Shown: in pieces, positions 13,252 through 30,918 of the stretch
How positions within the stretch are numbered: position 1 is the first letter of the stretch
How the letters are laid out: each line of letters starts with the position of its first letter
Assembly (NCBI GenBank): GCA_028286565.1
Contig: JAQBRH010000004.1
Coordinates: 122,168 to 186,167, forward strand
Direction: 5' to 3'
Origin: Parcubacteria group bacterium
Lineage (GTDB): Bacteria > Patescibacteriota > Minisyncoccia > Phycocordibacterales > Zambryskibacteraceae
DNA length: 64,000 nt
Translations under genes and position numbers: made by a program
Notes under the pieces: model-generated
The model's input: only the letters and a program-made list of their open reading frames with translations
What the model was told of the DNA's origin: nothing
The model's database searches: none

Positions 13252-13626
13252 TTATTTTGAAATTTTCTTCGAAGACTTCTTCTCTTTCTTCGGTGCTCCT
13301 TCCGCAAGGATCACGTTCACGTGAGCAGTTCGCTTCCTAAGGACGAATGCTCGGCCTCGGGACATCGGCAGGCGCCTATAGAGGATCTTTCCTCCGTCGA
13401 CCCTGATCTCCTTGACCACGAGGTTGTCGAGCGAGAGCTCGAGGTTCTTGGCATTGGCCAGGGCGGACGCGAGGAGCTTCTGGAGAGGGGCGGCGGCGCG
13501 CTTTGGGACGAACGACAGGGTGACCAAAGCATCCTCGACCTTTTGGCCGCGGACCATGTCAGCCACCACTCGGACCTTGCGAGGAGACTGTCGATAATCT
13601 GAAAGTGTAGCTTTTGCTTCGGCCAT
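13252..13626 (-). CDS. rplV: 50S ribosomal protein L22
   Basis: 124-aa L22 (MAEAKATLSDYRQSPRKVRVVADMVRGQKVEDALVTLSF...). Confidence 0.93.
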   Translation of the reverse strand: MAEAKATLSDYRQSPRKVRVVADMVRGQKVEDALVTLSFVPKRAAAPLQKLLASALANAKNLELSLDNLVVKEIRVDGGKILYRRLPMSRGRAFVLRKRTAHVNVILAEGAPKKEKKSSKKISK

Positions 13627-13631
13627 AATGG

Positions 13632-13970
13632 TTATTTCTTATCTGCGGACCCCTTGGCGGCCTTAGCGGCGGAGACTTCTGCCTCCTTTTTCTTGATCTC
13701 GAGGTCCTTTTGCATCTTTCCTCCGTGCTTGGTGAACTTCCTGGTGAGGGAGAACTCTCCGAGTCTGTGGCCGACCATGTCTTCGCTCACGAAGACCTCG
13801 ATATGGTCCTTGCCGTTGTGGACGCCGAAAGTAAACCCGACCATCTCAGGAGCGATCTGCGAGGCTCGGGCCCAGGTCTTGATAACACCGGTTGTACCGG
13901 GTTTCTTGCCCTCTATCTTTTTAAGGACGCGAGGGTCGACATATGGGCCTTTTTTGCTTGATCGTGTCAT
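13632..13970 (-). CDS. rpsS: 30S ribosomal protein S19 with a lysine-rich C-terminal tail
   Basis: Core [14 protein letters not shown]...[35 protein letters not shown] matches S19, with an extra ~25-aa K/A-rich tail. Confidence 0.95.
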
Positions 13971-14008
13971 GAGAAATAAAGAAAGCTCGCACGAGCTTCG
14001 GGAAATAT

Positions 14009-14035
14009 AGTATAGAAATCAGGCTTTAATGTCAA
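14009..14035 (-). promoter_or_regulatory. Strong consensus promoter for rpsS: -35 TTGACA, 15-nt spacer, -10 TATACT, followed by a 5'-UTR hairpin (13993-14008)
   Basis: Minus-strand read TTGACA-ttaaagcctgatttc-TATACT...cccgaagctcgtgcgagctttc...ATG. It shows that rpsS heads its own transcription unit after the S10-cluster split. Confidence 0.5.
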
Positions 14036-14036
14036 A

Positions 14037-15473
14037 TTGGGCCTCTCTGCATGCTATGATATCCGCATGGATTCGGACCGCATGAGGTTAAAAGCTCTCG
14101 AAAGGGAAAAACTCGAGAAGGAAAAGGCTATCCATCCTGAGTTTTTCCCCGAGCAGGCCTGGGTGGACGATAAAGAACTCCTCGAAACCTTGGGTATTCA
14201 TATACCGAACAAGGAGAACCTCCCAAGTGCTTATCTCAAGCTCCTTCCGAGTGACTTCATAGTGGAAGAAGAAACCCAGACCGGGTACCAAACTGACACC
14301 CTCCCTGAACGTACTGCCCTAACAGGAGAAGATGGAGGCACTGTGTATGCGACGCTCGTCAAATGCGGGCTTTCGACCATTGAAGCGGTGGATGAGCTGG
14401 CTAAGCTTTTGAACACAACCAAAGACAAGATCCAGTACGCCGGCATCAAAGACAAGGACGCCGTCACCTCTCAAGAAATTTCTTTTAGAGGCTCTTCGCT
14501 TGAAGCGATAAAGAATATGCGCTCTCCCCATTTCTTCCTCAAGGATGTACGCCCGGGCAAGGGCATCGTGATGCGAGGAGGACTTAACGCAAATAGATTT
14601 ACTATCCTCCTGCGAATAGGAGAAGACATGGAAGATAAGGCTAAGATGAAAAATGCCCTCGAAGCTCTTGAGAGGGTAAAGAATGAAGGGTTTTATAATT
14701 ATTTTTATCTTCAAAGGTTCGGTTCTCCGCGTCTCAATAACTACAAATGGGGGCTTTCTATACTTAAGGGTGACTACGAAAAGGCTGTTCGAGGGCTTAT
14801 CTCGGATCCGGGACTTCGAGAGATACCGTTTTTCTTGAAACAAAGAGAGGAGATCATCGCTCTGGCTCCCGATTGGGCCAAGGTGCTCGCCCGACTGAAT
14901 GAATTCCCTCTCGTCTTCCCTAGCGAGATCAGGGTAGTAGGGCATCTCGTGCAAAAACCGACCGATTTTCTTGGAGCTCTGATGAAGATCGAGGAGCAAG
15001 TTGTACTCTGGGTAAGCGCGGTCGCGTCTCTCATGTATAACCGCAAAGTGAGCGCATACCTCATGGCAGGAATGGAACCCCCCCGCACGCTCCCCCTCTT
15101 CCTCAGTCCGGACAAGAACGATTGGCTGCCCTATATGGAAGATATGGAAAATGTGGGGATCTTCCCTCCTAACTTCAATACTCTTCGGTCATTCCAGCGA
15201 ATATCCATTATGCATAAAGAGATAGAAACCAAGGACAAACCGAAGATCCATGCGGCAGAGGTCATCGCCGAAGGGATCGTGGTCAATTTTTCTCTTGGAA
15301 AAGGAGAATACGCGACCACTTTCCTCTCTCATTTCGTAAATTTATTGAACGGCTGGCCTCCGAAAGAAATGAATGGCGAGATCATCGACCTCAAAAAGCA
15401 TTTGGGCCAAGAACCTCTTGAAAAGACTCTCAAGTATTTCGAGACTGTAAATCTATCCAAGAAAAACGAGTAA
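14037..15473 (+). CDS. truD: tRNA pseudouridine synthase, TruD/Pus7 family
   Basis: Family motifs PSDFIVEE (PEDFxVxE), YAGIKDKDAVTSQ (GxKD catalytic-Asp loop) and NYFYLQRFG (NYFGxQRFG). The likely true start is MDSDRMRL at 14067, 6 nt after a TATGAT -10, i.e. leaderless. Confidence 0.75.
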   Translation: MGLSACYDIRMDSDRMRLKALEREKLEKEKAIHPEFFPEQAWVDDKELLETLGIHIPNKENLPSAYLKLLPSDFIVEEETQTGYQTDTLPERTALTGEDGGTVYATLVKCGLSTIEAVDELAKLLNTTKDKIQYAGIKDKDAVTSQEISFRGSSLEAIKNMRSPHFFLKDVRPGKGIVMRGGLNANRFTILLRIGEDMEDKAKMKNALEALERVKNEGFYNYFYLQRFGSPRLNNYKWGLSILKGDYEKAVRGLISDPGLREIPFFLKQREEIIALAPDWAKVLARLNEFPLVFPSEIRVVGHLVQKPTDFLGALMKIEEQVVLWVSAVASLMYNRKVSAYLMAGMEPPRTLPLFLSPDKNDWLPYMEDMENVGIFPPNFNTLRSFQRISIMHKEIETKDKPKIHAAEVIAEGIVVNFSLGKGEYATTFLSHFVNLLNGWPPKEMNGEIIDLKKHLGQEPLEKTLKYFETVNLSKKNE

Positions 15474-15480
15474 AAGAAGA

Positions 15481-15509
15481 GGCCGAACCCGTAGGTTCGG
15501 CCTTTGTCC
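15481..15509. terminator. Bidirectional terminator ggccgaacc-cgta-ggttcggcc between convergent truD and the 188-aa gene
   Basis: Perfect 9-bp stem with U-rich flanks on both strands. Confidence 0.7.
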
Positions 15510-15528
15510 ATTGAAGGACCCTTCTCAC

Positions 15529-16095
15529 TTACTGAACTGCCGCCGCGTGACGACTGTCCATCTCGGCGTCAGCCGGCCGGTCGATGCGCTCGATCCCGGC
15601 GGGAACTCGCTTCTCGTTCGTGAAGAAGAACTTCACGAGGACAAGCTTGATCTCGTCGAGCCGGACACCGTCGGTAACCGGGCCTTCGAAGCCGGCAGGG
15701 ACGATGCCGAGTACGTCATCGCGAACGGTGACGTTCTGCTTCGGCGAGCCCTGTTGGACACCGACGAAGTTGATCGTCAGCACGCCGTTCGGATTCAGCC
15801 AGATGTGGCAGAACCAGGGCGTCGATGCGAGGTCGCGAAGCGCTTCGGTCGTCGCACGGCTGAGCTCCGCGATCGGAGTGCCAGCCGGCGAGTACGCGAG
15901 TGTGACAACGAACTTGGTAGTGGCGCCTTCCTTCTGCTGCTTGTGCATCTGAGCGCGATCGAGGCCAAAGCCTGCGTTCGTGAGTGCTCGACGGACGAGC
16001 TCTGCGCTCACCATCTTCTCGTTGTTGTAGATCTGCACACCGGTGTCGACGCGTCCATCGCGGATACGTCCGACTGCTGCGAGATTCTCGGTCAT
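15529..16095 (-). CDS. Hypothetical protein (188 aa); visibly GC-richer than its neighbours
   Basis: Long ORF bounded by terminators on both sides, with no recognisable catalytic motif. The segment GVLTINFVG is weakly reminiscent of small heat-shock protein beta-strands; this is not established. Confidence 0.5.
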   Translation of the reverse strand: MTENLAAVGRIRDGRVDTGVQIYNNEKMVSAELVRRALTNAGFGLDRAQMHKQQKEGATTKFVVTLAYSPAGTPIAELSRATTEALRDLASTPWFCHIWLNPNGVLTINFVGVQQGSPKQNVTVRDDVLGIVPAGFEGPVTDGVRLDEIKLVLVKFFFTNEKRVPAGIERIDRPADAEMDSRHAAAVQ

Positions 16096-16214
16096 GCGAC
16101 TTCCTCCGGGCTTCTGCCCTAGTGGTAAGTGAGGAGTGAATGTACATCAGGTACCTGCCTGATTTGTTAATCATATCATATTCAATACCCAATGTCAAGA
16201 ACAACTAAGGCGCA

Positions 16215-16241
16215 GAAAAGGGCCCAACTGGGCCCTTTTCC
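16215..16241. terminator. Bidirectional terminator gggccc-aact-gggccc
   Basis: Perfect 6-bp GC stem flanked by aaaag and ttttcc. Confidence 0.65.
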
Positions 16242-16273
16242 GGCTATTTCGGTATTATCTAGCGTATACCGAG

Positions 16274-16963
16274 TTAGCGCTTGTCGCTCATTTCGCCGCG
16301 AACGCGTTCGATGAAGCGTCCTGCCGCTTCCTGTCCGCCGAGGCCGAAGGAGAGGCCAAGGGCAAGAGAGATAGCGATCACGATGCCTGTGAAGAGAGTT
16401 TGCGAGAATGCCGCTGCGATACCAAGCTGTGAAAGAGCGACGAGGATGGTGAAGATCCAGATTGCCCACTTGGCGATCGTGCCTGCGAAGTGCGCTGAGG
16501 TGATCTGAGCGCTCTTTGCTGCGGTGACGACCACTCGGTCGACCACATCCCCTACCACGCCTCCGACGAGGAGGATGAGGGCTGCGACGATAACACGAGG
16601 GAGGTACGCAATGACAACGTCCTGGAGGAATACGTTGACCTGGTTAAGGCCGAGGACGTTGAAGGCTGCGATAAGGAACACGAGGATCACGAACCACTTG
16701 ACGAGACCGCCGATGAAGGCGCCTGAGTCGAGGTTCATGCCGCTTCGTCGAAGGAATGTTTCAAATCCTGCTCGGCGAAGCGCTTCGTCAACACGGAGAG
16801 ATCGGAACACCTGCCAGATCGCTCGGCCAAAGAGTGCGCCGATGAGCCATCCCAAGATGAGGATGATGATCGCGATAATAAGGTTTGGAACAAAGCTGAC
16901 GATCCCTAACCAAAGATTTTGGAAGGAAAGAGTCAATACTTGTCCCCATGTAGTCATAATCAT
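16274..16963 (-). CDS. Membrane protein with internally repeated conserved-TM-helix modules (MscS N-terminal-like)
   Basis: 229 aa, 5-6 TM segments and two similar halves (LWLGIVSFVPNLIIAIIILILGW... and AKWAIWIFTILVALSQLGIAAAF...). Assigned on pattern only. Confidence 0.6.
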   Translation of the reverse strand: MIMTTWGQVLTLSFQNLWLGIVSFVPNLIIAIIILILGWLIGALFGRAIWQVFRSLRVDEALRRAGFETFLRRSGMNLDSGAFIGGLVKWFVILVFLIAAFNVLGLNQVNVFLQDVVIAYLPRVIVAALILLVGGVVGDVVDRVVVTAAKSAQITSAHFAGTIAKWAIWIFTILVALSQLGIAAAFSQTLFTGIVIAISLALGLSFGLGGQEAAGRFIERVRGEMSDKR

Positions 16964-17079
16964 ATATTCTGGACTGTAGACCGTTACTTATTAATTACCA
17001 CCCGATGTGGTTATGCCCTATTATACACCTCTATTTCTGATTTAAATCAACTCTTGGCCCGACTGTGGATAGGAATCGC

Positions 17080-17640
17080 CTAGAGCCCGAGTTTGTTGTG
17101 GATCTTCTTGTGGTTAAAATCGAGAATATCGCGGACAAGCTTGTCGTAGAGGCCCAAGCGATAGTGGAAATCGGCGGTCTCAAAAGCCGCATAGCGGATC
17201 TCTCGGCCAAGTTCGGCTTCGATCGACTCTATGGCGTGGATAAGGATCCCCTTCTTCAAATGGTCGCCGACAACAAGGAGGTCGACCCGAGCTTCGGGGT
17301 CATGAAGGAATACGCCGGAGATGAGCACGAGCTTGAGGGCGCCGCCGCGGGCCAGCTTTTTTATGAGCTCCTTTTCGGTGATCGGGGTCGCATCGACGAG
17401 GAAATGCTCGAGGGGCTTTAGGTATCTGTATACGGTGTTCAAGGTGTAGCCCTTGGCCCTCTTCCTGATGAGGCCGGAGCGGTGGAGATTTCTGATCTCT
17501 CGGGCGACGAGCGGGCGTCGTTCTTGGGTTCGTTCGGCGACGGTCCCGGCATCATAGACGGAGCCCGGATTAAAGACAAAGAGGCGCATGATCTTTACTT
17601 TAGCCTCTCCGCCGAATATCTGAGCAACCGATTTGGTCAT
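17080..17640 (-). CDS. Hypothetical protein with an N-terminal winged-helix DNA-binding-like domain
   Basis: N-terminal KVKIMRLFVFNPGSVYDAGTVAERTQERRPLVAREIRNLHRSGLIRK resembles a wHTH. The C-terminal part (LVLISGVFLHDPEARVDLLVVGDH...) might be a degenerate nucleotidyltransferase-like fold; this is uncertain. Confidence 0.55.
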   Translation of the reverse strand: MTKSVAQIFGGEAKVKIMRLFVFNPGSVYDAGTVAERTQERRPLVAREIRNLHRSGLIRKRAKGYTLNTVYRYLKPLEHFLVDATPITEKELIKKLARGGALKLVLISGVFLHDPEARVDLLVVGDHLKKGILIHAIESIEAELGREIRYAAFETADFHYRLGLYDKLVRDILDFNHKKIHNKLGL

Positions 17641-17724
17641 GGGGCCATTCTACACATATCCCCTGCGAGGCGCCAGGGCAATAAAAAGCTGGCATAAATT
17701 GCCAGCTACCCCTTCCGATTTGGT

Positions 17725-18177
17725 TCAGGTTCCAAATATAGCGTTGACTAGTCTCCTGGCATCAGCATCTCGAGCAGCATCGGCATCTCGAGCGGCATGA
17801 GCAACCTGAGCTTGCCACCTTATGGCATCTTGAGCCCAGCCGCAAGGCACATACAAATGCTCAGGCTTGAAGTCATTGCAGAGTTTGGCTAGGTTATCGA
17901 CCTTCACCTTAACGAAATCGATCTGCTTTTGCTCCTGATCGAAAGTCATGACCCACAGTTCCTTGCGCACTTTGCCTTTGTTCTCGAGATGCATCCTGCG
18001 TGTGTCGAGCAGAACGTGTGCACTCTCGGTGGTCTGCACCAGTCCTCTACTACGTAACAACTCCCAGACTTCGCTTAGAAGACACCACCCCCAGTAGGCC
18101 ATCTTTCCCGCACGTTCGAATTCGTCTGAATTACCGTGGAGGTGATATGTCTGGGGTAACACCGGAAGAAGTTGCAC
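17725..18177 (-). CDS. Hypothetical protein (150 aa) with a short ARDADA tandem repeat at the C-terminus
   Basis: ORF with no motifs. A 21-nt near-perfect tandem duplication at about 17760-17805 encodes ARDADAARDADARR. Confidence 0.45.
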   Translation of the reverse strand: MQLLPVLPQTYHLHGNSDEFERAGKMAYWGWCLLSEVWELLRSRGLVQTTESAHVLLDTRRMHLENKGKVRKELWVMTFDQEQKQIDFVKVKVDNLAKLCNDFKPEHLYVPCGWAQDAIRWQAQVAHAARDADAARDADARRLVNAIFGT

Positions 18178-18277
18178 GATGGATCCTTCCTGCCTTGGGC
18201 AGGTGGCTTAAGGATAATGGGTGCACGGGGTGTGCAGTCCGAAAATTAAAATATCACAACATTATAGGTTAGTCAAC

Positions 18278-18355
18278 ACAAAACCCCGCCATGCGGGGTT
18301 TTGTCCCCTCTCCCTACCTAGGAGAGGGGAGACACGGCGTACGGGTGAGGTTATT
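18278..18355 (-). repeat. Copy A of a ~70-nt 3'-flank element: two tandem hairpins (ccccgc/gcgggg and ccctctcc/ggagaggg) plus U-tract, abutting a stop codon
   Basis: Near-identical to 21118-21186 (aaaa-cccc-gcgggg-ttttgtc-cctctcc...taggagagggg...ggtgaggttattt). Acts as a terminator for minus-strand transcription. Confidence 0.7.
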
Positions 18356-18419
18356 TGAGTGTTACTTTTCCACCAGCCGTCGTCGCAAGCTCCTCCTTAA
18401 GAACCCTCGGTTCTCAACG
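18351..18419 (-). pseudogene. Degenerate duplicated 3' end of rplL (encodes ...EPRVLKEELATTAGGKVTLK then stop)
   Basis: Hand translation of the minus strand gives GGKVTLK-stop, identical to the C-terminus of the intact rplL 150 nt away (..EEAGGKVTLK), preceded by a related LKEEL segment and an in-frame TGA upstream. Confidence 0.55.
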
Positions 18420-18502
18420 AAAAATGCCCATATGGGCATTTTTCTGCTTTCCTCCACGGGAGACCAGATGTTCTCCCGACCCCTCTCAAGCTGTCGTAAA
18501 AG

Positions 18503-18991
18503 TTACTTTAAAGTAACTTTTCCTCCAGCTTCTTCGATTCGCTTCTTCAATTCTGCGGCTTCTTCGTTCTTCATATCGGTCTTCAACATAGAAGGAGCTG
18601 CGTCGACGAGATCCTTGGCTTCCTTGAGGCCGAGTCCGAGGATTTCCTTGACCACCTTGATGACGGCGATCTTGTTCGCACCGCCGTCGGTGAGCTCAAC
18701 GTTCGCGGTCGACTTTGCGTCTTCTGCAGGACCCGCTGCGGCGGCCGGGCCGGCTGCGGCGACGGCGGTAGCCGAGACGCCGAACTTCTCTTCGAATACC
18801 TTGACGAGTTCGTTAAGGTCGAGGACAGACATCTCTTCGATCTCCTTTACGATCTTTGAGAACTTCGCAGGAACTGCGACTTCTTTCTCCGCCTTGGCTT
18901 CAGGCTTAACTTCCGCCTTAGCCTCTGCTTTGGCCTCGGGAGCGGGAGCGGCAGTTTCCTCCGCCGGTGCTGTGTTTGTAGTGTCGTCCAT
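18503..18991 (-). CDS. rplL: 50S ribosomal protein L7/L12
   Basis: Ala/Glu-rich hinge and C-terminal domain (GGANKIAVIKVVKEILGLGLKEAKDLVDAAPSMLK...EEAGGKVTLK). Confidence 0.93.
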   Translation of the reverse strand: MDDTTNTAPAEETAAPAPEAKAEAKAEVKPEAKAEKEVAVPAKFSKIVKEIEEMSVLDLNELVKVFEEKFGVSATAVAAAGPAAAAGPAEDAKSTANVELTDGGANKIAVIKVVKEILGLGLKEAKDLVDAAPSMLKTDMKNEEAAELKKRIEEAGGKVTLK

Positions 18992-19009
18992 TGTGGTAAT
19001 TTTAATTTA

Positions 19010-19498
19010 TTAAGACTTCTTCTCTGCTATCTGACCGAGCGCGATAGCGAAACGCTGTATCGGAGAATTGATGATGTTCACGAACATGCCTCGGAGCACC
19101 GGAGTGGTCGGGATCGTAGCGATCCCCTCCATCTCGGACTTCGACATGTATCTTCCTTCGAAAACTCCGCCGAGGATCTTCAATCCTTCAGGGAATTTCT
19201 TCTGGAATCCGTAGACTCCTCTCGCCGGAGCGATGAGGTCATCGGACCAGGCCATAGCGAGCTCGCCTGTGAGTTCGGGCTGAGCGCCTTCGAACTTTTC
19301 GGAATCGAGCACGCGCTTGGTCAAGGATTTCTTGGCCACCGAGTACGACACTCCCTCTGTTTTGAGGGTGCGGCGCATGGCGGAAGCCTGCGAAACCTTG
19401 AGGCCGTGGAAGTTGACGAAGACGAGGGACTTGGCGCTCTTTAGAGCATCCGCGAGCTTGTCTACAATTTCTCCTTTCTTGGCTTTGGATATTGCCAT
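19010..19498 (-). CDS. rplJ: 50S ribosomal protein L10
   Basis: 162-aa L10 (MAISKAKKGEIVDKLADALKSAKSLVFVNFHGLKVSQASAMRRTLK...) immediately upstream of rplL. Confidence 0.93.
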   Translation of the reverse strand: MAISKAKKGEIVDKLADALKSAKSLVFVNFHGLKVSQASAMRRTLKTEGVSYSVAKKSLTKRVLDSEKFEGAQPELTGELAMAWSDDLIAPARGVYGFQKKFPEGLKILGGVFEGRYMSKSEMEGIATIPTTPVLRGMFVNIINSPIQRFAIALGQIAEKKS

Positions 19499-19664
19499 GC
19501 TGTTAATGGTTAACGAACAAAAAAAGACCCATATAAGGCCTCGACATCCACATATGAAATGGGAGTGAGAGAGATCTCGGAAGGAGCTTAGTACCCTTGC
19601 GGGCTGCCTTCTGTCTTCGACCTTACGGGGATTACTTTATAGGAAAACGGAGAAAAGTCAAATA
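19499..19664 (-). promoter_or_regulatory. Long 5' leader of rplJ (candidate L10 autoregulatory leader) with upstream -35 TTGACT / -10 TAAAGT
   Basis: About 150-nt untranslated region between a terminator (19665-19690) and the rplJ start. L10 operons classically carry a structured leader bound by L10-(L12)n. The structure here was not verified. Confidence 0.35.
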
Positions 19665-19690
19665 AAAAAATCCTGACCGTAGTCAGGAAA
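19665..19690 (-). terminator. Terminator cctgac-cgta-gtcagg plus T7 run (minus orientation)
   Basis: Minus-strand read tttcctgactacggtcaggattttttt; it overlaps the stop of the 91-aa ORF at 19683. Confidence 0.6.
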
Positions 19691-19958
19691 CTTGGGATAC
19701 AACTCTCAGGCCCAGTCGCGCCGCATGGAAGCGCCGATAGGAAGAAATGTTCGGGATAGTCTCCGTAAGCTCTCGGAGCTTTTTGTGAAGCTCATCCGGA
19801 TTGTAGCGGATAAAAGCTCTCCGACTACCGCCTCTTCTTTCTACGCACCAGAGGCAGAAGTCGAGATACAGCCATTCCGCAAGACCGAAGATCGCAAGGG
19901 CAAAGAATACATAAGACGCAGCCAATGGGCGCATACGCTCCTCTCTGAGAAAGGACAT
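19683..19958 (-). CDS. Possible small membrane protein (91 aa)
   Basis: ORF ending in the terminator above, with a hydrophobic segment YVFFALAIFGLAEWLYLDFCLWCV. A competing plus-strand ORF overlaps it, so the call is low confidence. Confidence 0.3.
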   Translation of the reverse strand: MSFLREERMRPLAASYVFFALAIFGLAEWLYLDFCLWCVERRGGSRRAFIRYNPDELHKKLRELTETIPNISSYRRFHAARLGLRVVSQVS

Positions 19959-20014
19959 GGGTCTAAAGCCAGACTATCTTAATTAAAATAAAAAGCAAAT
20001 AAAAAAGCACGAAA

Positions 20015-20290
20015 TTATTCGCGCTGAGCGGGAACGTAATGTTCGACGGTGCAGGCAGAAACACTCTCGATCGCAAGGGGGTTTTTCGCCCGCAGCGTAT
20101 TGCATCGCTTGAGCAGAAGTTCTGCACGCTGCTGAATGAAGACTGTGGGCGCGTCCGTCTGAGCGAGGACGAGCAAGTGGCCAATGTCAGAGATGATCTT
20201 GCGCCGAAGCTTGAGTCTCTCAGGATCAGCTCTGTTAGCCTGAGCATCCTCTTCTGCGGTGGGCATTTCGTCGATATCGGGACCGGGCAT
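20015..20290 (-). CDS. Hypothetical small protein (91 aa, acidic N-terminus)
   Basis: GAGGA RBS 6 nt upstream of the ATG and a perfect TTGACA -35 further upstream. A competing plus-strand ORF (20039-20332) cannot be excluded. Confidence 0.35.
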   Translation of the reverse strand: MPGPDIDEMPTAEEDAQANRADPERLKLRRKIISDIGHLLVLAQTDAPTVFIQQRAELLLKRCNTLRAKNPLAIESVSACTVEHYVPAQRE

Positions 20291-20398
20291 TGTGTCCTCA
20301 CTGGTAAAAGAGCGTGTACCTTACTCCTTTAAGAAATATCATTTCAACCAACTAATGTCAATCAAAAAACTCGGGGATTTTTGAATTTTAAACGTGTA

Positions 20399-20737
20399 TT
20401 ACTTCGGTTCAACAATTACCGCTGTGCCGTAGGCGAGGACTTCGGTGACGCCCTGCATCAGCTCTGTGGTGTCGTATTTGAACCCTATGACGGCGTTTGC
20501 GCCCATTTCTGCAGCATGGGTGAGCATCAGGTCAAAAGCATCTTCTCTGGTCTTCTCGCAGAGTTCGGTCAGGATCGTGATGTTCCCTCCGATGAGAGTC
20601 TGGAGCCCCGCTCCGATCGATCCGACGATCGAACGCGAACGCACAATGATGCCTCGAGAAATACCGATATTCTTTACTACCTTATACGCATCGAGCTCGA
20701 ACGCTGTGGTCACCATGTTGTGGGGTATTGTTGTCAT
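20399..20737 (-). CDS. YbjQ/UPF0145 family protein
   Basis: ~110-aa protein with the typical Gly-rich repeated pattern (GIIVRSRSIVGSIGAGLQTLIGGNITILTE...GANAVIGFKYD...GTAVIVEP). Confidence 0.8.
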   Translation of the reverse strand: MTTIPHNMVTTAFELDAYKVVKNIGISRGIIVRSRSIVGSIGAGLQTLIGGNITILTELCEKTREDAFDLMLTHAAEMGANAVIGFKYDTTELMQGVTEVLAYGTAVIVEPK

Positions 20738-20809
20738 AAACCTATTTTAACACAAGCAAAAATCAATTTTTACGTGAGATATCCCAGGAGAGAAGGGATA
20801 AATTAAACC

Positions 20810-21103
20810 TCAGGAAGTCCAAATGGAACTGATAATCCAAACTGAACCGAGGATCAGGATGACCGCAGAGACTCCAAACAAAGTAATAAATCTTCCCTCT
20901 TGTTGTTTTCTGACTTCACTCACCAGTCCCACAATCAGTCCAAGAATTGCAACAATAGCTACGATTATCGCAGCACCGTAAATGCCAAAAGCGACTCCGA
21001 AGCCTTCCGCACCGCTAGCTGTATTGCTTTCGTATATCCAAAAGAATAAATGCACAACTACCACAGCTATAAGTGAAAGAAACACCTTGGTAATTATTTT
21101 CAT
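20810..21103 (-). CDS. Small membrane protein (97 aa, 3 TM)
   Basis: Start taken at the internal ATG (MKIITKVFLSLIAVVVVHLFF...). The track ORF runs upstream into rplB and is not credible. The ATG lies 6 nt after a TATACT (leaderless pattern). Confidence 0.55.
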   Translation of the reverse strand: MKIITKVFLSLIAVVVVHLFFWIYESNTASGAEGFGVAFGIYGAAIIVAIVAILGLIVGLVSEVRKQQEGRFITLFGVSAVILILGSVWIISSIWTS

Positions 21104-21117
21104 ATATACAGTATATA

Positions 21118-21186
21118 CACAAAATCCCCTTGCGGGGACTTTTGTCTCCCTCTCCTTTCGTCTAGGAGAGGGGTGGGGTGAGGTTA
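21118..21186 (-). repeat. Copy B of the ~70-nt tandem-hairpin 3'-flank element, immediately after the rplB stop codon
   Basis: The alignment to 18278-18355 is near-identical across both hairpins and through the stop codon (ggtgaggTTAttt). Confidence 0.7.
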
Positions 21187-22023
21187 TTTCTTTCCGACCT
21201 TTCGTCTTCGGACGATGAATTTGTTCGAGTATTTCTTTGCTCGGCGGGATTTCTGGCCCTTTCCGGTCGGCTTGCCGTAGATAGAGATCGCTCGGCGTCG
21301 TCCTCGACCCTGGCGGCCTTCTCCTCCTCCGTGCGGGTGGTCGACGGGGTTCATGGCCGTACCGCGGACGGTAGGGCGAATGCCAAGCCATCGTGAGCGT
21401 CCGGCCTTCCCGAGGTTTGTGAGGCGGTTCTCATCGTTCGAGACCTCGCCGATGGTTGCCCAGGCGTTCTCAGGGACCTTCCTCACTTCGCTCGAAGGCA
21501 TCTTGATGTCCACGTAGCCTCCGTCCTTGGCCGAGACCTCGACATAGTTCCCTCCTGATCGAGCTACTCGCGCGCCTCCTTGAGACTTGAGCTCGACGTT
21601 GTAGATAAATGTTCCGACGGGGATGTTTTTGAGGGGAAGCTTGTTGCCGGGAACGAGCGGAGCATTATCTGAAGCGATGAAAGTATCTCCGACCTTCACA
21701 TTCTTCGGGAGAAGGGCGTATCGCCTCTCTCCGTCCTTGTAGGCCACGAGTCCGATGAATCCCGAGCGGTTCGGATCGTATTCAACGGTCTTCACGGTGA
21801 AGGGGACGTTCGGCTTGTTGTATGTAAAATCAATGTCTCGGAACAATCTTTTGTGCCCGCCACCCTTGTGTCGAGTAGTGATGCGCCCGGTGTTGTTGCG
21901 TCCGTTCGCTCGGCGAAAACCGGTGGTAAGGGACTTCAAAGGCTCGCTCTTCGTCAAGAACTTCTTGAATTCGACGTGAGTCGTTTGTCGGTTCGATTTG
22001 GTTGTGGGTTTGTATCGTTTCAT
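21184..22023 (-). CDS. rplB: 50S ribosomal protein L2
   Basis: 279-aa L2 (..GRNNTGRITTRHKGGGHKRLFR..., C-terminal GGGEGRQGRGRR...). Confidence 0.97.
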   Translation of the reverse strand: MKRYKPTTKSNRQTTHVEFKKFLTKSEPLKSLTTGFRRANGRNNTGRITTRHKGGGHKRLFRDIDFTYNKPNVPFTVKTVEYDPNRSGFIGLVAYKDGERRYALLPKNVKVGDTFIASDNAPLVPGNKLPLKNIPVGTFIYNVELKSQGGARVARSGGNYVEVSAKDGGYVDIKMPSSEVRKVPENAWATIGEVSNDENRLTNLGKAGRSRWLGIRPTVRGTAMNPVDHPHGGGEGRQGRGRRRAISIYGKPTGKGQKSRRAKKYSNKFIVRRRKVGKK

Positions 22024-26370: not shown

Positions 26371-28200
26371 TTATCTCATAAGCCTGAACTTGAGGAATTC
26401 CTTGATGGTCATACTTAGCTCCTCTCCCGCCGGCTTAAGGGTCTCGAGCGCCAAAGCGCTCTTAACGGACTCATCGGATGCACTCGCGTCGGCGATCTTC
26501 TGCAAAGCCTCGGCGACGCTAGTGTGCTCCGGATCGATCGAATTGTAGATGCTTTCCGAAACCCCGAGCTCATGGCTCAGTTCTACAGGACTTACTTCAG
26601 ACAAAGGAAGGATAGGTTCATGCAGATCTATAGAATTATCCATGGCCTTCGATATTTCCGGCTTGGTATCCATAAGGCCGTGGAGCTTATTGACCTTCTC
26701 TTGGACGAGATCAGAAATTTTGTACGCGGGCTCGGGAGGAGCTTCGTGGATAGGCAGGACCGGTCCTGCGTGAGGCAAAGCAGTTACAGTTTCTGCCTCG
26801 GGGACGGCTTCATGCACTTCTACCTCCGGGACAAGAGCAGTGTGGGCCGTATCTACTGATGAAAGATCGGCCCTCGCTTCGAGAGCGACCGCTTGGACAT
26901 GCGCTAAATTTTCCCACAGACGATAGAAAGAGGTGGTAATGGTTTCGACCGTGGCCGCAGCTACCAAGGTCTTGCCTGCGAACCGAGCATATCGCGCCGC
27001 CATGGCCAGCCCGTCGACGGTTCCATACTGAGTGACGATCTTATCGAATTCCTGGAGGGTTTTTTCTTGTTTGGCAAAAAGGGCTTGTTTCTTTGTTTCT
27101 TTCTCTCTGGGAGAAAGTTTTGGATTGTTTTCTATTTTTGAAATTTTCTTTTCAAGGCTTTCTACGATCGAACTCACTTCCCTCTTCAGCATGCCTTGAA
27201 CGAATTTGTTCGCTTCCGCCGGAGTAGCTCTGCCCAATCTCTCCATGAGGTCTTTTGGCATCTTCTCTGTATAGGCCTTTTTGAGGTCTTCCGCCGTGAT
27301 TTCATGACCTTGGGATTCATCTTCGGCCTTTGTATAAATATTCCAAGCTTCTTCCTCTGCCTTATCCACATCAGCAAGTCTTGTCTGCTCGATCACCTCT
27401 TCGTTTTGCAGACGGACTTCTAGGGCAGCATCTCCGCCTCTGGCCACTCCGGCGCCGGCAAGCATCACGTAGCGGAGCGGAGAAGCGATGGCGTTGCCCG
27501 CAAAGTCGGCCGCGATACGTCCGTATTTCATCACATTTCCGGCCAAAGAAAGGGCATTCGAGATACGGGCGGTCTTCCCGTTCTTTGCATCAATGCCTTT
27601 TTGATACGCGGCATCGGCATCTTTAGTAAAAGAATCCCTGAGGGCGCCGCACCATTTGTTTACCGGATGATCCTCGCCGATCTTTTTTATCGTGTCCGAA
27701 TTGAACCAGCCGGCAAAGATCCTGTTCTTCTTTTCATCGAGGTTGAAGCCTATCCTATTCAGTCCCCACCCGATCTTTTCCCTTTCCGGAGCAGGGATAG
27801 CCTCTATCTCTGCCGCCGCCTTATCCTCCCAGCTTTCTTCCGATCCTTCTGAGACTTCTGAACTTCCGCCGAATAAAGACTTAGCCTTTCCCCAAAAGGT
27901 TTGCTTCTTGGATTTTTGTCTTTCAGCTACCTTGGTTAAAAATTCCGCTGAAGAATACGTAAAAGCTGGATTCGGGTCCCATGTCTCACCTTTATGAGGG
28001 TGTTTAAGTTCAGGCCCGGTCGGTTCAGGAGCGGGCGCTTCATCTTTTTTGGCCTTTGGCTCTTGTTCGATCGGCATTGCTAGAGAGATCTCTCTTTCGA
28101 GCATCTTCTCTGCTTCTTCTTGAGTAACAGGAATAGGAACTTCCACATCCCTCGGATTTTCTGGAGAATTACTCGAATTGTTCTCGAATCTTTCGGACAT
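26371..28200 (-). CDS. Large acidic hypothetical protein (609 aa) inserted between fusA and tuf
   Basis: Uninterrupted 1.8-kb ORF with no TM segment and no catalytic motif, rich in E/K/A/S. It has its own upstream terminator/promoter region (28231-28272) and a downstream terminator, so it is monocistronic. Confidence 0.7.
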   Translation of the reverse strand: MSERFENNSSNSPENPRDVEVPIPVTQEEAEKMLEREISLAMPIEQEPKAKKDEAPAPEPTGPELKHPHKGETWDPNPAFTYSSAEFLTKVAERQKSKKQTFWGKAKSLFGGSSEVSEGSEESWEDKAAAEIEAIPAPEREKIGWGLNRIGFNLDEKKNRIFAGWFNSDTIKKIGEDHPVNKWCGALRDSFTKDADAAYQKGIDAKNGKTARISNALSLAGNVMKYGRIAADFAGNAIASPLRYVMLAGAGVARGGDAALEVRLQNEEVIEQTRLADVDKAEEEAWNIYTKAEDESQGHEITAEDLKKAYTEKMPKDLMERLGRATPAEANKFVQGMLKREVSSIVESLEKKISKIENNPKLSPREKETKKQALFAKQEKTLQEFDKIVTQYGTVDGLAMAARYARFAGKTLVAAATVETITTSFYRLWENLAHVQAVALEARADLSSVDTAHTALVPEVEVHEAVPEAETVTALPHAGPVLPIHEAPPEPAYKISDLVQEKVNKLHGLMDTKPEISKAMDNSIDLHEPILPLSEVSPVELSHELGVSESIYNSIDPEHTSVAEALQKIADASASDESVKSALALETLKPAGEELSMTIKEFLKFRLMR

Positions 28201-28230
28201 GGCAAATATTTTGTAGTTTTAATATAACAC

Positions 28231-28253
28231 AAAAGCCCCGAACGGGGCTTTTG
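28231..28253. terminator. Bidirectional terminator gccccg-aa-cggggc after fusA
   Basis: 6-bp GC stem flanked by aaaa and ttttg. A TGtTATATT extended -10 follows on the minus strand, ahead of the 609-aa gene. Confidence 0.65.
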
Positions 28254-30894: not shown

Positions 30895-30918
30895 CTCCCT
30901 TTCGGGAGCTTTTGTTTG
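30895..30918. terminator. Bidirectional terminator ctccc-tttc-gggag after rpsG
   Basis: Perfect hairpin flanked by aaaaaa and cttttgtttg. Confidence 0.65.

Follow-up and report, generated by a model that had tools for sequence, protein, structure and literature searches.

The window analysed here is a 64-kb stretch of a genome from the Parcubacteria, a group of the Candidate Phyla Radiation (CPR), in which two similar structured elements lie behind ribosomal protein genes. Copy B (21117-21189) follows rplB, the gene of ribosomal protein L2 (21184-22023, minus strand; Pfam Ribosomal_L2_N and Ribosomal_L2_C), the stop codon of which occupies 21184-21186, and copy A (18276-18356) follows a 3' remnant of rplL with a stop codon at 18351-18353. 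All genes near the two copies are on the minus strand, and both copies are intergenic. The native rplJ (19010-19498, minus strand) and the intact, native rplL (18503-18991, minus strand) are found between them, and their products share 94-96% amino acid identity with those of the relative L002 (GCA_040384245), which is similar to the identity of the neighbouring genes. The L7/L12 protein encoded by this rplL has 162 residues, with an N-terminal extension of about 35 residues that is rich in Ala, Glu, Lys and Pro; it is likewise long in L002 (160 aa), whereas L003 and L004 have the usual 133-134 aa. The remainder of the S10/spc operon, rpsS through secY, continues from about 13970 downward, with rplB and rpsS separated by some 7.2 kb that contain the rplJL block. 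An S10 operon that is split in this manner, with a block of rplJ, rplL, o186 and the gene of an MscS-like protein, with or without TruD, between rplB and rpsS, is seen in the window (13500-22023) and, within L002-L004 and L128-L140, in every relative of at least about 73% L2 identity with a visible rplJ, and as the gap between rplB and rpsS ranges from about 30 nt to about 8 kb in more distant Parcubacteria, the junction looks like an insertion hotspot. In the str operon of the window, a 609-aa protein without Pfam match is encoded between fusA and tuf (26371-28200, minus strand), and unannotated genes of similar size lie just upstream of tuf in L002 (616 aa, after fusA) and L003 (572 aa), compared by size and position only.

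Downstream of the intact rplL come about 150 nt with a terminator-like hairpin, then the remnant, the stop-proximal and distal parts of copy A, and a 150-aa ORF. For this ORF, Pfam gave no match, and neither the protein database nor any of 83 related loci has a homologue. The hairpin (AAAATGCCC-ATAT-GGGCATTTT, 18421-18442, minus strand; fold and hairpin enumeration), placed between the stop of the intact rplL (18503) and the remnant, is probably the working rplL terminator. The remnant, recognized by translation (18351-18401, minus strand), consists of 16 codons, LKEELATTAGGKVTLK plus the stop codon, lies 150 nt downstream of the intact gene and directly abuts copy A. In its last nine codons, 6 of the 27 nucleotides differ from the end of the intact rplL, all of them synonymously, which suggests that the remnant is a piece of a different functional rplL, foreign (xenologous) or ancient, rather than the product of a recent local duplication. 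The interval between rplL and o186 cannot be aligned to L002, and the same holds for the interval after rplB and for about 760 nt between ybjQ and rplJ. The latter segment (19663-20423), between ybjQ and the leader of rplJ, is absent from L002, in which about 30 nt separate the two in the alignment. It contains two 91-aa ORFs without homologues in the 83 related loci as well as terminator-like hairpins at 19671-19688 and 20006-20025. The only other assembly with the exact rplB (L001, Logan SRR13312974, 3.2 kb) ends 20 nt past copy B, at about 21095 and at the start of a 97-aa membrane protein ORF; this end may be a coverage or strain-variation break at the variable segment. An exact-protein look-up of rplL gave no record.

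The earlier note had described A and B as a direct repeat that aligns almost base for base, through the stop codon itself. The repeat pair is real: on recomputation the copies, in direct orientation, reached a gapped local alignment score of 60, compared with a background maximum of 25 among unrelated 200-nt stretches from both strands of the window, and the similarity extends up to and across the stop codon (AAATAA followed by CCTCACCC). The near-identity was overstated, as 63 of the 86 alignment columns are identical, 5 are mismatches and 18 are gap columns, and it is because of these indels that gapless repeat finding over the whole window missed the pair, which gapped local alignment found. 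Alignment and motif searches gave no third copy of the element in the 64-kb window. The core CCTCTCC-N-GGAGAGG occurs in the window only at A and B, with a chance expectation of 0.01, and GGGTGAGG is likewise found in the window at these two sites only.

On the coding strand, each copy has the order TAA stop codon, leader CCTCACCC, spacer, hairpin 1 (CCCCTCTCC-loop-GGAGAGGG), ACAAAA, hairpin 2, TTTTGTGT. The tandem hairpins that had been noted, two GC hairpins and then a U-tract, were recovered in coding-strand folds of both copies (A, -41.2 kcal/mol, z = -3.9; B, -33.1 kcal/mol, z = -5.3), these being ViennaRNA folds that cover the hairpin part only and do not model a triplex. Leader and hairpin 1 stems are identical between the copies, and the spacer between them measures 1-2 nt in B and 13 nt in A. 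Hairpin 2 is a GC stem of 5-6 bp that is specific to each copy, CCCCGC/GCGGGG in A and TCCCC/GGGGA in B.

The stop-proximal part of each copy, leader and hairpin 1 together, has the build of an intrastrand triplex motif (TM). A finder of our own, which looks for a pyrimidine arm, its complement and a mirror repeat and allows G·G:C, A·A:T and T·A:T triads, returned A and B as the sole motifs in the 64 kb, both on the + strand and with 8 and 9 perfect triads, respectively, and returned none in 20 shuffles. On the G-rich strand, TM copy A (18306-18350, +) reads CCCTCTCC, CTACCTA, GGAGAGGG, GAGACACGGCGTAC, GGGTGAGG, with an unusually long second loop of 14 nt, and TM copy B (21148-21184, +) reads CCCTCTCCT, TTCGTCT, AGGAGAGGG, GTG, GGGTGAGGT, the last T being the complement of the final A in the rplB stop codon; both have a hairpin fold. 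Read on the coding (minus) strand, TM copy B is TAA-CCTCACCCC-A-CCCCTCTCC-TAGACGAAA-GGAGAGGG. The + strand, which is the template strand of the adjoining genes, carries the G-rich, triplex-capable form, and it is this strand that may form the triplex. An inverted TM-like motif just after the stop of the intact rplL (18455-18490; GAGAGGGG-tc-GGGAGA...TCTCCC, minus strand) is attributed to chance, with 6 triads and a z of about -1.5, and a stretch downstream of rplL in L002, CACTCACGT, that resembles the leader CCTCACCCGT is too short to weigh as a sign of a native leader.

Holder et al. 2015 (PMC4666352) assigned this kind of motif in E. coli to the G/C-rich class II intrastrand triplex motifs and listed 23 copies (TM_ECO) in strain MG1655 of the form CCCTCTCCC-loop-GGGAGAGGG-TTA/CCG-GGGTGAGGG; the earlier names cited there are BoxC (Bergler 1992) and PIT element (Hoyne et al. 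2000). The same E. coli motif was treated by Kaplan et al. 2016 (PMC5100583) as a switch between G-quadruplex, hairpin and duplex (HPG1/HPG2). The triplex has been seen in single-stranded DNA only; Holder et al. 2015 (PMC4666352) could detect it neither in vivo nor in duplex DNA. As to location, the same study reports no association of the E. coli motifs with gene class, distance to genes, phages, plasmids or transposons, and an association with local variability (PMC4666352).

Membership of A and B in the broad G/C-rich intrastrand triplex motif family is well supported by their sequences. The stems of both have at least 8 nt with at most 1 mismatch and more than 50% G/C, as the definition in PMC4666352 asks, and they match those of known members, namely the E. 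coli sequences in Table 1 of PMC4666352 and the lldD-trmL spacer. Read directly from MG1655, this spacer has the stop codon, 9 nt, CCCTCACCC, TAA, CCCTCTCCC, TCA and GGGAGAGGG, which is the layout of copy B. Like TM_ECO, also known as PIT or BoxC, A and B have three segments with nearly the same stems, CCCTCTCC(C), (G)GGAGAGGG and GGGTGAGG(G), and 24-25 of 27 stem positions are identical to TM_ECO no. 17; like TM_ECO, they are intergenic, can lie few nt past a stop codon (as behind E. coli lldD) and vary in presence among close relatives. There are differences as well: the stems of A and B are effectively 8 nt long, whereas those of TM_ECO have 9 nt, the first loop has 7-9 nt instead of 3-6, and the second loop, 3 nt in TM_ECO, has 3 nt in B and 14 nt in A. 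The inverted A+B pairing known from BoxC is absent here. Copies are very few in the host, a Parcubacteria (CPR) genome, and strict TM_ECO has been reported in Proteobacteria only. Neither copy matches the strict pattern CCCTCNCCC-N3-6-GGGNGAGGG-N3-GGGNGAGGG of Holder et al. 2015, since A has AGGAGAGGG and the 14-nt second loop, and B has T as the ninth base of the Y arm, a 7-nt first loop and GGGTGAGGT. With loops of 7 (or 9) and 3 nt, B falls within the limits of Hoyne (0-10 nt) and slightly above those of ITxF (1-6 nt), and the second of the two loops of A (7 and 14 nt) lies beyond both, so that the triplex potential of A is probably the weaker. The ITxF-type motifs (2015; abundant in Cyanobacteria and Enterobacteria) share the triad rule, stems of at least 8 nt, the G/C-rich composition and the intergenic position, but their loop limits would have missed variants with a long second loop such as copy A and L009, L026, L040, L059 and L066. 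Rfam gave no match at the element even at E <= 1; in the window, only tRNAs reach the gathering threshold, and the best local match is whalefall-1 with 21 bits compared with a threshold of 37. A coding function of the motif was discarded, as the frame that is open here (GEGWGEV) is interrupted by stop codons in other family members.

The motif is widespread. A pattern that covers only the hairpin and does not require the third segment, CCCTCTCCTAG-N2-10-GGAGAGGG, matches at least 120 genome stretches from many phyla, and the third segment (CCTCACCC upstream or GGGTGAGG downstream, with at most 1 mismatch and within 45 nt) is present in 115 of the 125 matches listed, compared with 4% at control positions. 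The 120 loci listed include about 25 from Patescibacteria/CPR, about 20 from Chloroflexota, about 16 from Cyanobacteria or Melainabacteria and 7 from Moraxellaceae, the remaining matches listed being from Ignavibacteria, Planctomycetes, Bacteroidota and Proteobacteria; the source genome is not among the matches listed for this pattern. Leader and hairpin are mostly 3-5 nt apart among the matches listed, with a tail to 36 nt in which spacers of 9-36 nt are a minority. In L006-L125, the leader covaries with the hairpin arm at mirror positions (CCTTCTCC with CCTCATCC, CCTTCCCC with CCCCATCC, and CCTCCTCT with ACTCCTCC), as predicted by selection on triplex-compatible symmetry. A T-to-A substitution in the leader (GGGTGAGG over GGGAGAGG) is strongly preferred across the same variants. 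A long second loop like that of copy A, or a hairpin inside the second loop, is found also in the five loci named above as beyond the ITxF limits. A small GC hairpin between leader and main hairpin marks a subfamily (L009, L026, L040, L047, L059, L066, L090, L121) that occurs in Saccharibacteria, Paceibacterota, Chloroflexia and others, and copy A resembles it with its unstructured spacer of 13-14 nt.

The full pattern of three segments, CCTCACCC-N-CCCTCTCC-N-GGAGAGGG, which specifies 24 bases and for which we roughly estimate well under one chance match, occurs in at least 120 viral contigs of IMG/VR (L207-L326, e.g. L221 and L228). IMG/VR includes prophages and some host DNA. Some of these viral contigs have 3-5 TM copies in a few kb, with up to 5 within 3-7 kb, often in one orientation per contig, and with some inverted pairs. 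The same TM 8-mers recur in Chloroflexota, Cyanobacteria, Moraxellaceae, CPR and viral contigs. Among the matches listed, the motifs often lie within a few nt of stop codons, and with respect to flanking genes they show no preferred orientation (20 vs 18 for 100 bacterial units and 29 vs 26 for 163 viral units). No flank consensus was detected in 261 TM units. In the clade of the source genome they are rare: in addition to the pair in the window, for which the earlier note had suggested a search for more copies, only 4 units were found in 816 kb of related loci.

Hairpin 2 is of a different nature. In both copies it is a GC-rich stem-loop with a U-tract directly after it on the transcribed strand, which is what defines an intrinsic terminator by sequence, and it would thus end transcription. 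It shares with intrinsic terminators of the bidirectional type the GC stem of 5-6 bp, the loop of 3-4 nt, the U-tract on the coding strand and the A-tract upstream, unlike hairpin 1, which has no U-tract of its own and belongs to a family that is inactive as terminator in E. coli: PIT elements lacked terminator activity there (Hoyne and Maher 2002, cited in PMC4666352), and published work reports no promoter activity for them either. Hairpin 2 of copy A (AAAA-CCCCGC-ATG-GCGGGG-TTTT, 18280-18302, minus strand; fold and hairpin enumeration) resembles a house style of this genome, and hairpin 2 of copy B (AAAAG-TCCCC-GCAA-GGGGA-TTTT, 21121-21142, minus strand; terminator scan, hairpin enumeration and relatives) appears to be the native rplB terminator, bidirectional in form through its A- and U-tracts. 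Terminators of the same style stand without a TM after fusA (CAAAAGCCCC-gttc-GGGGCTTTTGTGT, 28230-28253), which scored highest against copy A in the background scan once self matches were set aside, and, in similar form, after rpsG (30895-30908). As such terminators occur elsewhere without a TM, and as relatives keep the rplB terminator without hairpin 1, hairpin 2 is likely each locus's own terminator. The suggestion that each copy as a whole is a terminator can thus be kept for the distal hairpin 2 with its U-tract, a plausible intrinsic terminator, but not for the entire element, hairpin 1 being part of a repeat family.

The relatives also permit a comparison of filled and empty sites after rplB, the kind of structural variation for which a search in related strains had been proposed. 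In L002 (96% L2 identity) and in L126 and L127 (85% each), a terminator of the form AAAAGTCCCCG(C/A)AAGGGGA(C)TTTT (in L127 a closely similar form) follows 1-11 nt after the rplB stop codon, and leader and hairpin 1 are absent. The terminator is AAAAGTCCCCGCAAGGGGATTTTT in L002, the same except for a one-base loop difference in L126, and AAAAATCCCCCGAAGGGGATTTTT in L127. Aligned to these empty sites, the window has a discrete extra segment of 38 nt, CCTCACCCCACCCCTCTCCTAGACGAAAGGAGAGGGAG, which is flanked by the rplB stop codon and the terminator's A-tract. As L002 and the outgroups have no TM at this place, it is parsimonious to regard TM B as a discrete 38-nt gain in the lineage of the window. 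The filled and empty rplB sites show neither a target-site duplication nor terminal inverted repeats and thus lack the marks of a MITE. For copy A there is no orthologous empty site, because the region is rearranged. Both TM copies lie at or inside segments that vary between relatives, which fits the association with local variability reported for E. coli and does not imply causation; a link of the motifs to local rearrangements may exist.

A and B are new members of a known repeat family, in part belonging to a long-loop variant, and lie beside ordinary terminators. We consider it likely that each copy combines a TM-family member with an unrelated terminator in house style, that TM B was gained as a unit of about 38 nt, and that the rplJL block was neither delimited nor mobilized by the repeats. 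The stop-proximal part (leader, spacer and hairpin 1, about 38-46 nt) would be the widespread triplex-motif repeat, and the distal part (ACAAAA, GC stem and TTTTGTGT) the ordinary intrinsic terminator of this genome, at which transcription would end. TM B would have been gained ahead of the pre-existing rplB terminator, directly behind the stop codon of the gene, and a second, diverged TM lies after the remnant of a foreign or ancient rplL 3' end, in which case the resemblance of A and B would result from their common family together with similar neighbouring house-style terminators. The motif itself most likely has no locus-specific function and is most likely a selfish or neutral structured repeat, which may fold into a stable hairpin or, when the DNA is single-stranded, into a triplex, and which marks stretches that differ between the genome of the window and its closest relative.

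Less likely, but to be taken seriously, is a different origin of the pair, in which TM A came with foreign DNA that carried the rplL remnant, and ectopic gene conversion or template switching produced one copy from the other, in either direction. Both copies have the same orientation and identical junctions on either side (AAATAA next to CCTCACCC, and the end of GGAGAGGG next to ACAAAA), and both first loops begin with TAG. The identical junctions favour a copying of TM B from A, whereas the loops, which are very different (first loop 7 vs 9 nt, second loop 14 vs 3 nt) even though both TMs were gained after L002 had branched off, favour independent gains, and the flanking homology is very short for such a copying. 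An arrival with foreign DNA would agree with the purely synonymous differences of the remnant, as expected for the functional rplL of another lineage, and with the adjoining 150-aa ORF that has no homologue, but no donor sequence was found.

It is improbable that the element acts in the 3' UTRs of ribosomal protein mRNAs as a sense-strand RNA signal, such as a stabilizing or regulatory hairpin. Both copies follow stop codons of ribosomal protein genes in the same orientation, and in the RNA, hairpin 1 would form a highly stable stem shortly before the terminator, but the element is missing after the same genes in the closest relatives and has no Rfam family match, the orientation of the family among the matches listed is neutral, and the E. 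coli motifs are associated with neither gene class nor gene distance, all of which makes a sense-strand RNA function of the TM unlikely.

Still more improbable is the suggestion that the whole tandem hairpin of about 70 nt is a mobile terminator module, similar to MITEs or REP elements, that inserts after genes. What stands of it is that the stop-proximal 38-46 nt belong to a dispersed family whose members are often few nt from stop codons, and L139 also has a TM followed by a terminator. A and B have in common with MITEs, REP/BIME and REPIN elements that they are short, structured, intergenic and dispersed, often near the 3' ends of genes, but they lack target-site duplications, terminal inverted repeats and the GTAG/CTAC signature. 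The REP and REPIN elements are species-specific and of high copy number, which differs from the counts here, 2 in the 64 kb of the window and 4 in the 816 kb from relatives, and from a core that is common to several phyla. A mobile unit of 70 nt is contradicted also by the rplB hairpin 2, which pre-exists in relatives that have no hairpin 1, by the different hairpin 2 stems of A and B, by terminators of the same form without TM elsewhere in the window, by the variable flanks of the motif and by the lack of terminator activity reported for PIT elements in E. coli.

Least tenable is the view, favoured in the earlier note, that the direct repeats are the footprint of an insertion or duplication of the 2.8-kb segment with rplL, rplJ and ybjQ by recombination between them: the copies do flank this segment in direct orientation, and the rplL remnant beside copy A indicates some local rearrangement, but with 18 gap columns and 5 mismatches they have diverged too far to have recombined with each other recently, rplJ and the intact rplL are native, and rplJ and rplL lie between rplB and rpsS in every relative down to about 73% L2 identity that has enough contig, in none of them with a TM at either site. 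In these relatives (all those with a visible rplJ, down to about 73% L2 identity), the order rplB, a variable interval, rplJ, rplL, o186, the MscS-like gene and, further on, rpsS is found in L002, L003, L004/L005, L128-L131 and L137, and is partly visible in L132 and L135, and there is no TM after rplB or rplL; L140 has the block of rplJ, rplL, o186 and MscS instead 6 kb upstream of rplB. As the order is conserved in relatives without TMs, and as rplJ and rplL are as similar to L002 as their neighbours, the gene order long predates the TM copies.

For the annotation of this genome, the reading of A and B as TM-family members beside unrelated terminators removes a false lead, because the repeats are no evidence for a mobility of the rplJL block and the terminators are ordinary ones. 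It also means that TMs are present in the small genomes of the Candidate Phyla Radiation, and the precise gain of 38 nt between a stop codon and a conserved terminator constrains models of how TMs originate. The frequent occurrence of the TM core in viral contigs contrasts with the finding of Holder et al. that TM_ECO has no link to phages, plasmids or transposons (PMC4666352). It is possible, though for now only a tentative idea, that the triplex motif is an actively insertable unit of about 38 nt, with its core in at least ten phyla, CPR included, and in many viral contigs, and with the long-loop variants as a subfamily. If this is true, the variants with a long second loop or with a hairpin in the second loop would form an uncatalogued subfamily, the window would offer a clean pair of filled and empty sites (stop codon, 38 nt and pre-existing terminator, without target duplication), and the distribution of the motif would point to a horizontal, possibly phage-borne, spread of a structure-specific element.
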